A stretch of DNA of 39,249 bases from Candidatus Woesearchaeota archaeon (GCA_016211185.1 JACQST010000016.1:1-39249), one strand, 5' to 3'. Positions 33,097-38,899 are shown, counted from the stretch's first letter. The notes: generated from the letters alone by a model not told the origin. Program-made: numbers and translations.

Positions 33097-34599
33097 TTAC
33101 CCGCACCTATAGCAGTAAGCCCTTGAGCCGCCAGCGTTTGTGAGGCACCAGTTATTCCATGTAGGGTTATTTGGATACGTCCATCCAATGCTGCAGGTTG
33201 TTCCGAGAAGGCCGTAATTATCATTGCCGCACGCATTTGTCCCGCCAGGGCAAACAGTGCCGCCGATACCTGCACCAGTGCTGCACGTGTAACAGTAAGG
33301 TCTTGACTCTCCGGCATTTGCCCGGCACCAAATATCATACTGGCTGTTGTACTGGTAATTCCAAGAGCCACTGCAAGCAGGCAAGAACTCCCTGCTGCCA
33401 CCTCCACAGCCATCAACGCCGCCAGGGCAAGCACTGCCTGTCCCTACACTGCAAGTATAGCAGTAAGAACGCGATTCCCCAGCAGTAACCCTGCACCACT
33501 CATTATACTGGGTGTTGCCAGGGTAAAGCCACTGGCCGCTGCATGAACTAAGGGACTCGCGGCTACTTCCGCCACACGCACCCACTCCCCCAGGACACAT
33601 AACTGACGGCGTTGGGGTTGGTGTTGGCGTTGGCACAGGAGACGGCGAAGGCGTGCCTGAAGCAACTCCAGCGCTCTTCACCAAAATAGTAGTGTCCTCA
33701 TGCTGCTTGTAATTGAAGAAAAGCTCAATGCTCAGTGGGGTTTCAAACTCCCTCCCAGAAACACCAGAGGCATCCATGAAGCAGCTCACAAACTTCTTGT
33801 TCTCAGTAAGCGTAACGTCACCCTCATTCCCGCCGCCAAGGCTCGTGCAGGTTATCCTCCCAACATTCGAAGTAACCCTCACCCTAACCCTGTTCCTGTT
33901 CTGGAACCTTGAATCGCACAAGTCACCAGAATGAATGGCACCAGTGCCCTTATGCACAAGGTCAAATGAAAAAGCAATCTTGCTCTGCCCGCCAGGACTC
34001 TGCCTGAAATTCTCCACATGCAGAGGAGAGCCTGAATTAGACACTGCCTTAACCTCATCAACCTTGCAGGTCGGCTCCTGGCCAAACCTCGGCAACTCCC
34101 GCTGCACACAGAACTGCGCAGAAGCCCGGGTCCTGTAAGAATAGCACACATCGACACGCAAAGGAAACTGGGTGTTCCCAGGCAACACCTGCCTATACCT
34201 GAAAGGCTCCTCACCAGAGCTGCCAAAAGAAACAATCACCGGGTTAGCCTCCCTGCAGTTACCCTCCTGGTCCTTGCTCTTCCCCGGAATCCGCTCAGAA
34301 ACAACCTTCACATACACAGGGCCGCCAAAATCAACGTTGCTTATGCCAGAAAGCTCAACCTTCGACTGCGAAACCTCTATGTCCTGCTCACCCTTATTAA
34401 GAAGCCTCAAGGAAACATCAAAAGGAAACTGGTTGCCATCAAAAACCTCCAGTGGAGGACTCCCCTCAACGAACTTCACCTCAACGCCATCAAGGCCTCC
34501 ACAGAAAGGAGTGGTCTTCACATTATTAGGGCCCTGAGCACAGCCTGCAATGAAAACAGAAGCAGCCAAAAAGAACACAAGCGCAACCCTTCTTTTCAT
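33097..34599 (-). CDS. Secreted lipoprotein, paralog 3: two beta-rich modules, PT-linker and 3 tandem 6-Cys modules
   Basis: Signal peptide with lipobox MKRRVALVFFLAASVFIAGC. The body is paralogous to the two upstream genes (VCYSYRTRASAQFCV, NSGSPLHVENF, IELFFNYKQHEDTTILV). Linker GTPSPSPVPTPTPTPTPS. Three 49-51 aa repeats read CPGG..(A/G)CG...C(S)..W.Y......WC...AG.SR.YCY.C. Confidence 0.8.
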   Translation of the reverse strand: MKRRVALVFFLAASVFIAGCAQGPNNVKTTPFCGGLDGVEVKFVEGSPPLEVFDGNQFPFDVSLRLLNKGEQDIEVSQSKVELSGISNVDFGGPVYVKVVSERIPGKSKDQEGNCREANPVIVSFGSSGEEPFRYRQVLPGNTQFPLRVDVCYSYRTRASAQFCVQRELPRFGQEPTCKVDEVKAVSNSGSPLHVENFRQSPGGQSKIAFSFDLVHKGTGAIHSGDLCDSRFQNRNRVRVRVTSNVGRITCTSLGGGNEGDVTLTENKKFVSCFMDASGVSGREFETPLSIELFFNYKQHEDTTILVKSAGVASGTPSPSPVPTPTPTPTPSVMCPGGVGACGGSSRESLSSCSGQWLYPGNTQYNEWCRVTAGESRSYCYTCSVGTGSACPGGVDGCGGGSREFLPACSGSWNYQYNSQYDIWCRANAGESRPYCYTCSTGAGIGGTVCPGGTNACGNDNYGLLGTTCSIGWTYPNNPTWNNWCLTNAGGSRAYCYRCG

Positions 34600-34630
34600 A
34601 CGAACACCAGCACCACAAAAAGCGAGTCAG

Positions 34631-36630: not shown

Positions 36631-38899
36631 CAGTCCTCAACACATTTTCAACATAATCATTGCTGCATGCACAGCCGTTATACCTCCTCAACGCATACCC
36701 CCACCCAGAATACCTGCCCCCGCAAGTACAAGCATCAACAGGGCTACTGACAGACTCATCGTAACCAGCCTTCAGCAACCTCAACCCGGCCTCTATGTTG
36801 CAGTTCAAGTCCTTAACATCCTTCCCAGAGCAAGACAAAGCACCAATGCACATGTCAGGGCTGCCCTTCTGATATACAACCTTCCCAACGCACTGCGGAT
36901 GAGCATTTGTGCAGGTATTAATCTGCATCACGCCCAAGGAGCAGCCACTGTCACCACACTTCACAACCCCATCACAGTTGCCATAAGCGCTGTAAGGCCT
37001 CGGGGCATAATGCTGCAGGCCACCCTCAACCATGGCAACCTGAAACGCAATCCTCCTTGGAACACCATGCCTGTCAGCCCAATACCTGATGGCGTCAACA
37101 ACGCTTGCGCTCCCAGTAGAACCTCCTCCTGATGAAGAAGAAACAGAGACAGGAGAAGACGAAGAAGGCTTCTTCCTCTCATCAACCCTTACAACAACGT
37201 CCTTCTCCACAGTATAAGTATACCTTGCAGACACCCTGAAGAACCTAAGCCCCACACCACCCTCACCAAGCAACTTAGACGACTCACGCTCACTAAACTC
37301 CAAAGGACACAAGAAATAAAGGTAACTGCCCTTCCTGATATCAGTAAACGCCTCAGGGTTCCCAGACCTCTCCCCTGCTATATCCAGCTGGTAGAAATCA
37401 TAGTCCTCATCACCGCCAGAAGCAACAAACCTGCCGGTGCAGCCAGACACGTCAATCCTCAATCCTTTCGGCACATAAAGCTTAAGCTCAGACAACGAGT
37501 CAATACGACCCTGCCAATCAGTGCTCAGGGACAACTTAATCGACTGCTCCTCATTCTCCATAGGCGCAGCGTTTATCACAGGGCCTGCATCTATGCCAAT
37601 CATCACAGGGCCCTGAGTGTATTCTGCAACAGGCTCCTTCTCAGGCAGCTTGTAAAACGCAACAGGGTCCTCATCCTTCGGAACCTTACCCCTGTCAATA
37701 ACATACGCCCTCAAGTCAGCATCAGTCTTAAAGTTGAACGTCGCAGAGACCTTCACAGACCTGCTGCCGGGCTTAAGGCCACTATCGAACCTGCAACTAA
37801 ACACGTTATCCTCAAACTTATCAACCCTGATTTCAGGAGGCAGGATAACGCCTTGAATCTCATCCCTCTTCTCGAAGTCAGACCAGCACTTAGGAATAAT
37901 CGAGATAGGCTCCTCCAAAGTCTCAGCCTTTATATCAGCCAGCACAACAACCTTCCTGCCCTCAACATACGAAGGCTCAGCAGGCTCCAGCTTCTTGATG
38001 AAAACCCCCACAGGCTTAGAGTCCTTCTCCTTCCCAGGAACTATTCCGCCAGTAGCAGTGCTTATCTGCCCGCTGAAAAAATCGCCAATAGACTCAATAA
38101 AGGCGTTATACCTGCCTGCCAAAGAACCAGCTGCCTTCCCGGAATCCAAAGACTTTTTAAGCCCTTCAAAAAAAGACTTTATCCCATACTTCTGGTCAAC
38201 CTCATAAATGCTCTCGCCAAACCCAGTGGTCTTCATGGCATCAGCCAAAACAGGCCAGACAATGCCATAAAGCAACAATATTATTATGATGTCACGCGCA
38301 ATGCCTCCAACAAAACTGTCGCTCTCCCTCGCAACCAGAACCCATGTCCAGCAAGTAGCAAAAAAAAGCATCAGCGCATTCAAGACAGTGAAAACCCCGA
38401 ACTCAGAAGACTTAGGAATAACAGGCAGAAGCTTGCTCCATAAGACAGGCGCAAGAAGAGAAATCAGTGAAAGCGCAGACGCATGCTGCACAGGCAGGAT
38501 TTTAAAAACAAACGCGACAGCAACAAAAATCGTGAAATAAACAAAAGCCCTGGTCTGAAGCGGGATGATGTAGCCAAGAAAAAGCTCAAGAAGCTGATAC
38601 AACGCCACAAAAACCAGAACAAAAGTAGGCACAGGAACCTTGGGCTTAAGGAAATCAAGACCCTTCACAACCACGCTGCCGCCTGACTTAGCAGCGCCGG
38701 TAGCTGCAGAAGCGCCCGCAGCCGCAGCAGAAACCATGCTGCTGAACGCATTCCTCCCTGACTTTGAAGACAGGTTGCTGCCCGCCATCGCATCGTACGC
38801 AGCACGGCGCGAAGCACTGTTTGCAGTCTCTTCCTCTTCCAAGGCATCAAGTATTCTGTCCTTGCCGTAATCCTTAGGGGCTGCAGGCATATTTACCAC
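36596..38899 (-). CDS. Polytopic membrane protein with two beta-rich ectodomain modules and a C-terminal Cys-rich SLT lytic-transglycosylase-like domain
   Basis: About 90 aa of Ala/Ser-rich cytoplasmic N-terminus, then about 5 TM helices (roughly residues 92-225). The ectodomain has module-ending motifs ATFNFKTDADLRAYVI and VSARYTYTVEKDVVVRV, like the paralogs. A Ser-rich linker follows. SLT motifs are AMVEGG (catalytic Glu), GVMQIN, NIEAGLRLLK and ALRRYNG. GTG at 38899, ATG at 38890. Confidence 0.8.
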   Translation of the reverse strand: MVNMPAAPKDYGKDRILDALEEEETANSASRRAAYDAMAGSNLSSKSGRNAFSSMVSAAAAGASAATGAAKSGGSVVVKGLDFLKPKVPVPTFVLVFVALYQLLELFLGYIIPLQTRAFVYFTIFVAVAFVFKILPVQHASALSLISLLAPVLWSKLLPVIPKSSEFGVFTVLNALMLFFATCWTWVLVARESDSFVGGIARDIIIILLLYGIVWPVLADAMKTTGFGESIYEVDQKYGIKSFFEGLKKSLDSGKAAGSLAGRYNAFIESIGDFFSGQISTATGGIVPGKEKDSKPVGVFIKKLEPAEPSYVEGRKVVVLADIKAETLEEPISIIPKCWSDFEKRDEIQGVILPPEIRVDKFEDNVFSCRFDSGLKPGSRSVKVSATFNFKTDADLRAYVIDRGKVPKDEDPVAFYKLPEKEPVAEYTQGPVMIGIDAGPVINAAPMENEEQSIKLSLSTDWQGRIDSLSELKLYVPKGLRIDVSGCTGRFVASGGDEDYDFYQLDIAGERSGNPEAFTDIRKGSYLYFLCPLEFSERESSKLLGEGGVGLRFFRVSARYTYTVEKDVVVRVDERKKPSSSSPVSVSSSSGGGSTGSASVVDAIRYWADRHGVPRRIAFQVAMVEGGLQHYAPRPYSAYGNCDGVVKCGDSGCSLGVMQINTCTNAHPQCVGKVVYQKGSPDMCIGALSCSGKDVKDLNCNIEAGLRLLKAGYDESVSSPVDACTCGGRYSGWGYALRRYNGCACSNDYVENVLRTDVSEYLSERVA

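Follow-up and report, generated by a model that had tools for sequence, protein, structure and literature searches.

We analysed a contig of Candidatus Woesearchaeota archaeon (GCA_016211185.1, JACQST010000016.1:1-39249) over its whole length of 39,249 bp, which is the window referred to below. Gene order and profile comparisons identify four of its genes, here called G1 to G4, as the second to fifth genes of a five-gene envelope cluster inherited vertically within the Woesearchaeales/Nanoarchaeia (DPANN). Judged from its sequences, the family of G1 has a constant scaffold, made of a membrane anchor and an ectodomain, and a swappable wall-degrading payload that differs by lineage. We hold it reasonably likely that the cluster encodes a membrane-anchored surface assembly presenting a wall-degrading domain to bacterial peptidoglycan; we infer both the assembly and its target.

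The four co-directional open reading frames (ORFs) are on the minus strand and occupy positions 33097-38899, exactly where a preliminary description made from the sequence alone had placed them. That description counted four genes. All four were confirmed, but the full cluster has five, and the first, gene0, is outside the window: only 350 bp of contig precede G1, and gene0 is cut off. In the interval 38900-39249, neither gene0 nor the 85-aa gene of the related loci L001 and L003 was recognisable; there is only a short ORF, truncated by the contig end. The overlap is 35 nt between G1 and G2 and 4 nt between G2 and G3. The archaeal contig also encodes Cdc6, both PolD subunits, MCM, TBP, RFC, FEN1, and a class II AspRS. 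In homologue searches, the nearest relatives of the genes studied were metagenome-assembled genomes (MAGs) labelled Candidatus Woesearchaeota, which agrees with the small-genome archaeon proposed before and makes it a member of DPANN.

The locus survey took one genome per GTDB species and comprised 31 loci, to all of which our own hidden Markov models (HMMs) were applied. The loci belong to Woesearchaeota or Nanoarchaeia, bar a few implausibly labelled MAGs. The order gene0, G1, lipoproteins was seen in every locus with enough flanking contig. With HMMs for the lipoprotein subfamilies A, B, and C, the lipoprotein order was ABC in 18 loci, ABBC in one, and AB or A in eight (mostly at contig ends); in the window, A, B, and C are G2, G3, and G4, respectively. 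The preliminary description had proposed a dedicated envelope cluster, and the recurrence of the same order in the 31 related loci shows that its genes are co-conserved. Sequence comparison places the divergence of A, B, and C as paralogs anciently, before the radiation of the order. In L001 and L003-L005, the cluster lies on one strand and consists of gene0 (~388 aa), a G1-like gene (510-990 aa), and three genes of ~306-350 aa. L001 and L003 encode two close G1 homologues, and L004 and L005 encode two distant lipoprotein homologues.

L003 has an unrelated 346-aa gene without a Pfam match between lipoproteins A and B (10372-11412). It is the sole unrelated called gene that interrupts the cluster among the annotated loci. 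Several of the cluster-bearing MAGs (L009-L011, L014, L018, L021-L023, L029, L033) are titled 'uncultured Methanosarcinales archaeon', and one 'Candidatus Aminicenantes bacterium'. These titles are probably default or mis-binned labels and not occurrences beyond DPANN.

The gene0 product of the relatives has ~390 aa. Its 28 orthologues share the N-terminal consensus kkgQ.G..AA.LvaiIagLIilYIlFLPp.ER, which is predicted to have the form of a type IV pilin-like (class III) signal peptide; a plain signal anchor is the alternative. This form has a short basic N-terminus, [KR]-[GA] before Q/A, and a hydrophobic helix of ~20 residues, all of which are present in the consensus. Comparison with the lipoprotein and G1 ectodomain profiles revealed no relationship to gene0.

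G1 is a polytopic membrane protein (Table 1) with P0002 (44% identity) and P0003 (41%) as its closest homologues. Its true start is likely the ATG at 38890 (MPAAPKD), which matches the homologues. The AlphaFold2 (AF2) model had a mean predicted local distance difference test (pLDDT) of 79.4. About five transmembrane (TM) helices and a Ser-rich segment had been described, and hydropathy and the AF2 model agreed on both; the modelled helices are residues 92-107, 114-131, 137-157, 169-191, and 196-224. Their odd number suggests that the N-terminus is cytoplasmic. No invariant polar residue was found in the anchor across homologues. The conserved core throughout the family is the TM region plus the ectodomain, and the stretch ahead of the ectodomain varies from 5 to 530 aa. 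In the G1 of L004, this stretch resembles repeated amphipathic helices. The two extracellular modules of the preliminary description are present as two beta domains, but together they form one two-domain module.

For the G1 ectodomain, Foldseek gave generic tandem beta-sandwich matches only. The soluble domain of STT3 was in the list, matched by its beta-sandwich part alone (TMt 0.17-0.20). We rejected an AglB/STT3 identity for G1, which has five TM helices against ~13, no STT3 Pfam match, and no WWDYG.

By exhaustive HMMER search, the G1 family comprises 1,326 representative clusters (50% identity) at E<=1e-3, and 756 at E<=1e-30, with lengths of 324-1,470 aa. A word-indexed search gave 4 relatives even with a profile, which was a sensitivity artefact, and exhaustive HMMER was used instead. 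Among 189 collected members, 45 end within 30 residues past the ectodomain, and 132 have extensions of more than 100 residues. Pfam domains in the 47 longest members were SLT (22), Amidase_2 (2), Peptidase_M23 (2), NlpC/P60 (2), Amidase_3 (1), and Glucosaminidase (1). The 29 species-representative orthologues had SLT (8), Glucosaminidase (3), Phage_lysozyme2 (1), NlpC/P60 (1), and fn3 (1). All recognised domains are peptidoglycan hydrolases, except fn3 and the marginal matches to Pur_ac_phosph_N and to two domains of unknown function. Amidase_2 and Amidase_3 cut the bond between MurNAc and L-Ala, and the M23 and NlpC/P60 families are peptidases that act on murein. With iterated HMMs, 44 of 44 SLT domains were C-terminal to the ectodomain, a position that would be extracellular if the five-helix topology is N-in, C-out. 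The anchored hydrolase of the preliminary description is present in G1 as anchor plus SLT domain, but in the family as a whole the hydrolase is optional.

The G1 orthologues of L004 (5014-7986) and L006 (7986-10748) have an NlpC/P60-like domain before the SLT-like domain, with 23.3-23.6 bits against a Pfam cut-off of 23. By eye, the expected nucleophile Cys of the L004 domain is Asn (ISNSGF). The NlpC/P60-like domain of these two proteins may be an inactive wall-binding module.

The SLT-type domain that had been read at the G1 C-terminus was upheld, on the strength of profiles and structure. Scanning directly with Pfam and NCBIfam models gave nothing: full-length G1 had no match to Pfam SLT (PF01464), and the isolated domain reached 14.6 bits (E 0.024), under the gathering cut-off of 21.3. 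The A5 profile, built from four orthologous domains, matched (E 1e-8 to 1e-15) distant members of the family whose corresponding region is Pfam SLT above threshold (22.6-44.7 bits). Searches of PDB sequences with the four-sequence profile gave no match; the profile of 86 family sequences matched the catalytic domains of E. coli Slt70 (1qsa, E 1.6e-5), MltC (E 4e-5), and MltE. A Foldseek search with the G1 model against predicted viral structures found many LT_GEWL/SLT proteins (probability 1.00, TMt 0.4-0.57, ~170 columns). The family consensus contains ES, GlMQIn, cNI..Gi..L, and YNG. In the window, these motifs are VE625GG (VEGGLQHY), GVMQIN (656-661), CNIEAGLRLL (700-709), and RYNGC (739-743). 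Glu625 aligns with the E of the ES consensus and is invariant in four orthologues. These profiles and the model identify the G1 C-terminus as a divergent SLT/GH23-like lytic transglycosylase domain with the catalytic Glu intact, and cleavage activity is predicted.

The domain has in common with Slt70, MltC, MltE/EmtA (SLT PF01464, GH23), and phage LT_GEWL the catalytic Glu, motifs of the GLMQ, NI..G..L, and YNxG types, and a lysozyme-like helical fold. It differs from the bacterial family-1 lytic transglycosylases in that it is sub-threshold in Pfam, has EG in place of ES, and holds 12 Cys in long inserted loops. Further differences are that an archaeal anchor of five TM helices and a scaffold of tandem beta-sandwiches are fused to it, and that the organism has no known murein. 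We rejected an origin from a phage or mobile element: tblastn searches of phage genomes with the SLT domain gave no match, and the cluster lies within conserved housekeeping synteny.

The N-termini of G2, G3, and G4 have a basic n-region and a hydrophobic h-region, followed by a lipobox ([LVI][ASTG][GA]C). The lipoboxes LAGC, LAGC, and IAGC are present as first described, and so is the paralogy of the three proteins: BLASTP aligned G2 with G3 (31% identity, E 2e-25) and G3 with G4 (27% identity, E 7e-20). The peptide GQGAPVAVTKV was thought to be shared by all three; it occurs in G2 and G3, but G4 has NSGSPLHVENF. The start of G3 is probably the ATG at 35590, which gives 306 aa. A profile of nine sequences collected 74 lipoprotein homologues, all unnamed or 'hypothetical', and all of the named sources were Woesearchaeota. 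A lipobox-like motif was present in 66 of the 74, with the Cys at least 90% conserved. Archaeal lipoprotein machinery is only partly understood, and from these motifs lipid anchoring is predicted for G2, G3, and G4. No Pfam domain was found in the 74 homologues or in an extended homologue set, and Pfam, NCBIfam, and PHROGs scans of G1-G4 gave no match. The lipoprotein family profile had no match among PDB sequences, and phmmer of G1, G3, G4, and the G4 repeat region against them returned nothing meaningful.

The motif TTTATAWR, which resembles a TATA box, has 13 copies in the window, where 2.8 would be expected; 13 was not reached in any shuffle, and the copies are mostly intergenic. Two copies lie directly upstream of the start codons of G3 and G4 (Table 1), and internal promoters ahead of these two genes are conceivable from their sequence.

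The AF2 model of G3, made with the alignment of the 74 homologues, had a pLDDT of 92.8 and a predicted TM-score of 0.86. It shows an N-terminal helix, then two all-beta domains. Foldseek against PDB found generic tandem beta-sandwiches (best E 4e-5, TM-scores 0.14-0.28), including integrin alpha legs, the STT3 soluble domain, RbmA, and complement MG domains. The CARDB-type fold suggested in the preliminary description was not supported: CARDB (PF07705) had no match at E<=1 in any of the four proteins, and the fold is a generic tandem Ig-like beta-sandwich. Csc/WxL clusters, MSCRAMM-type proteins, and integrin-leg domains are similar in that clustered genes encode anchored proteins built from Ig-like beta-sandwiches, and WxLIP, RbmA, Cna/Cnm adhesins, and integrin alpha legs were among the Foldseek matches. 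These matches are generic (E ~1e-4 to 1e-5, TM-scores 0.07-0.28, identity 4-13%); sequence similarity to these systems is absent, and their anchoring chemistry is different.

It had also been claimed that one module type builds all four proteins. BLASTP of G1 against G3 gave no match, and hhalign with small alignments was not significant. We then aligned 195 G1 ectodomains with 165 lipoproteins by hhalign, with 40 block-shuffled controls. The local score was 28.8 (P 0.0066; shuffled mean 17.6, standard deviation 2.5, maximum 26.6). The global score was 19.5 (P 0.001; shuffled mean 4.0, standard deviation 3.5, maximum 14.8), with 242 colinear columns that span the whole module. None of the 40 block-shuffles attained the observed score. 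In the AF2 models, the beta domains of G1 share the element order of G3, including a short helix before the long terminal hairpin, and the Foldseek PDB matches of the G1 model largely overlap those of the G3 model. The terminal strand motif on which the claim was based is real and is the last hairpin of each beta domain: ATFNFKT of G1 aligns with ATACYSYQT of G3, and RYTYTVEKDVVVRV with LKYGYRDSVQKKVELV. From these alignments and models, the G1 ectodomain is probably a distant homologue of the lipoprotein module, so the claim of a single module type is probable but unproven.

G4 has a C-terminal extension in this genome only, with a Pro/Thr linker and three Cys-rich repeats. A Cys-rich glycan-binding tip had been taken as part of the apparatus, which did not hold. 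The G4 orthologues of L001, L003, L004, and L005 have 313-320 aa and stop at G4 residue ~312, without the extension, which is also absent from all other sequences collected. An HMM of the repeat matched G4 alone among ~400 collected family proteins and ORFs, and a metagenome scan, Pfam, and PDB gave no relatives. By this comparison, the repeats stand outside the conserved apparatus, and a binding role for them is pure conjecture.

Table 1. Positions of the cluster genes, their parts, and TATA-like motifs in the window
Feature	Position	Strand	Details
G1	36596..38899	-	polytopic membrane protein, 767 aa; ORF call
G1 N-terminal Ala/Ser-rich region, residues 1-91	38627..38899	-	pLDDT <50 over 1-12, 40-79
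G1 membrane anchor, five TM helices, residues 92-224	38228..38626	-	hydropathy peaks and AF2
G1 juxtamembrane helical stalk, residues 225-289	38033..38227	-	AF2 helices 236-256, 260-282, pLDDT 53-70
G1 ectodomain, residues 290-575	37175..38032	-	beta-sandwich domains 298-401 and 432-573, pLDDT >90
G1 Ser-rich flexible linker, residues 576-597	37109..37174	-	sequence KKPSSSSPVSVSSSSGGGSTGSAS; pLDDT <50 over 580-597
G1 SLT/GEWL-like lytic transglycosylase domain, residues 598-767	36599..37108	-	Cys-rich insertions
Putative catalytic Glu625 codon	37025-37027	-	
G2, subfamily A lipoprotein paralog	35632..36630	-	332 aa; lipobox LAGC at 36535-36546
G3, subfamily B lipoprotein paralog	34667..35635	-	322 aa as ORF; lipobox LAGC at 35534-35545
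G4	33097..34599	-	500 aa; ORF call
G4 N-terminal part, subfamily C lipoprotein paralog, residues 1-312	33664..34599	-	lipobox IAGC at 34540-34551
G4 C-terminal extension	33097..33663	-	this genome only
G4 Pro/Thr linker	33598-33663	-	
G4 three Cys-rich repeats	33100-33597	-	~55 aa, 6 Cys each; repeat alignment
TTTATAWR, examples	117-124, 9863-9896, 26990-27260, 34634-34641, 35612-35619		35612-35619 upstream of G3, 34634-34641 upstream of G4

The neighbouring housekeeping genes of the window have the order RFC, MscS, Cas4-like nuclease, TyrRS, M24 peptidase, and TldD/PmbA, which is shared with L001 and L004. Rfam and tRNA scans across the window gave zero matches. An ORF on the plus strand (30961-33069) converges on G4, with the stop codons 27 nt apart. 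It encodes a 702-aa protein without a Pfam match, which is repetitive, rich in Glu, Lys, and Gln, and coiled-coil-like by appearance only; the AT skew of its region is extreme (0.53-0.63). L001, L003, and L004, unlike L005, have orthologues of 701-828 aa at this convergent position, and these share the C-terminal block ...LGYSEVEE...IDVA(L/M)QHK...SGYSKE.... Another ORF without a Pfam match (15796-16719, plus strand, 307 aa) lies between a tRNase Z-like gene and FEN1. At the equivalent FEN1-adjacent position, L005 has an ORF of ~325 aa, again without a Pfam match.

In the reading that we favour, the five N-terminally anchored proteins would form a single hetero-oligomeric surface assembly, and its scaffold would consist of the homologous modules from G1, A, B, and C, packed together. 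The scaffold would push the tethered hydrolase past the archaeal envelope, and the Ser-rich tether would let it reach a neighbouring cell. There, at cell-cell contact, the hydrolase would cut the glycan strands in the peptidoglycan of bacteria, which could serve attachment, access, predation, or antagonism. The scaffold would be conserved, and the hydrolase would be an exchangeable 'warhead' that varies among lineages. Bacterial murein is the presumed substrate because the alternative payloads are typical murein hydrolase families (amidases, M23, NlpC/P60) and because the literature searched reports no peptidoglycan synthesis in these archaea; nor did we find any sign of murein-making. The same payload families make pseudomurein, a further target named in the preliminary description, unlikely. 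Woesearchaeota-type archaea are not known to have a sacculus or to synthesise peptidoglycan.

Several points weigh against this reading, in which assembly, expression, lipidation, and enzyme activity are all presumed. The window SLT domain scores under the Pfam threshold, the motif Ser beside Glu625 is replaced by Gly, and two of the Cys-rich loop regions were modelled at pLDDT <50. The homology of the G1 ectodomain with the lipoproteins is statistically modest, with an hhalign probability below 10%. Since G3 and G4 have their own TATA-like boxes, their co-transcription with G1 is not required. Of the 189 G1-family members, 45 lack a C-terminal extension, so peptidoglycan cleavage cannot itself be what the scaffold is conserved for; with about a quarter of the family free of payload, the scaffold must serve some purpose of its own, for example in adhesion or envelope structure. 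Since G1 was the seed of the locus survey, the fraction of genomes with the cluster is not derivable from that survey. Finally, this organism has no known bacterial partner, and the literature searched names no identified partner for Woesearchaeota and their relatives.

The members without payload lend themselves to another explanation, in which the cluster makes a housekeeping envelope structure (a spacer or anchor of an S-layer or pseudo-periplasm) and hydrolases have been appended to an abundant exposed carrier, for antagonism or muropeptide scavenging and not to attach to a host. The conserved housekeeping neighbourhood and the order-wide synteny (Pelota upstream; RFC, PRC, MscS, and TyrRS downstream) would agree with this, as would a conservation of the scaffold that far exceeds that of the payload. 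However, the recognised payloads are nearly all peptidoglycan hydrolases, of seven families, which argues for persistent selection for wall cleavage on the scaffold. We consider a housekeeping structure possible but on the whole unlikely; it is compatible with a surface assembly directed at bacterial walls, and the two are not mutually exclusive. A more elaborate form of the assembly would be a cross-domain wall-breaching organelle that docks on bacteria, with G1 as the base, a pseudo-heterotetramer of Ig-like modules (G1, A, B, and C), and the pilin-like subunit. We regard this version as doubtful.

The three lipoproteins, being paralogs, could also be adjacent to each other and to G1 through tandem duplication alone, as independent adhesins or binding proteins with no joint complex or function. 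The TATA-like boxes of G3 and G4 fit such independence, as does the Foldseek likeness to adhesin folds (Cnm and Cna collagen adhesins, Als9, RbmA). Random tandem paralogs usually vary in copy number and order, whereas here A-B-C is fixed beside G1 and gene0 in 18 of the 19 complete loci (the other being ABBC), despite a divergence that predates the radiation of the order. In addition, the stop/start codon overlaps suggest coupled translation, and independence of these proteins seems improbable to us. G1 might otherwise be an autolysin, active in remodelling a wall of murein or pseudomurein type that the archaeon itself makes. Bacterial membrane-bound lytic transglycosylases (Mlt enzymes) serve as autolysins, and a universal syntenic conservation would fit a cell-cycle function. 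This explanation has against it that no peptidoglycan synthesis is reported for Woesearchaeota in the literature searched, that the payloads include Amidase_2/3, M23, and NlpC/P60, and that about a quarter of the family has no payload; we give it very little credence.

Neither the hydrolase nor the proposed bacterial target is new, as both are already known. Castelle et al. (2021; PMC8204110) report large extracellular murein transglycosylases in Woesearchaeota and Pacearchaeota, as part of a module of 51 families, most of them unknown, that is restricted to these two groups. Vigneron et al. (2022; PMC9723730) report GH23 genes in Woesearchaeota MAGs and propose predation on bacteria. The transglycosylases of both reports resemble G1 in lineage, domain type, extracellular location, and proposed action on bacterial walls. 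G1 probably belongs to or overlaps fam00969 of Castelle et al., a correspondence by analogy in lineage, domain, and wide distribution (PMC8204110). In the text consulted, the two papers (PMC8204110, PMC9723730) describe neither the anchor-plus-ectodomain scaffold, nor alternative payloads, nor the five-gene cluster. A PLoS Biology study of 2025 (PMC12352652) reported that archaeal peptidoglycan hydrolases kill bacteria and that their genes are prominent and diverse in Nanoarchaeota. Like G1, these are archaeal proteins with bacterial-type peptidoglycan-hydrolase domains. The words 'transmembrane', 'lipoprotein', and 'operon' are absent from the text of that study (PMC12352652), and so membrane anchoring and gene clusters are not discussed there, whereas in our case the hydrolase sits at the tip of a protein that is anchored in the membrane and encoded in a conserved multi-gene cluster. 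The literature searched held no description of a swappable-payload scaffold, three lipoprotein subfamilies, a pilin-like partner, or a fixed five-gene arrangement.

A large part of archaeal diversity belongs to Woesearchaeota and their relatives, and the idea that they attack bacteria has so far been based on scattered sightings of murein transglycosylase genes. These transglycosylases are now placed in a defined, order-wide five-gene surface module, and three large unannotated protein families are defined with it: the G1 scaffold, the A/B/C lipoproteins, and gene0. Were the organelle version true, it would be the first archaeal machine specialised in parasitising or preying on bacteria; a lineage-specific warhead would locally open the peptidoglycan of docked bacteria, and payload type would predict the wall type of the host. 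The cluster supplies proteins to localise, a domain to assay, and, in the payload type, a marker to correlate with candidate bacterial hosts. A loose genomic hint about the interaction of DPANN archaea with bacteria thereby becomes a defined, testable set of proteins.

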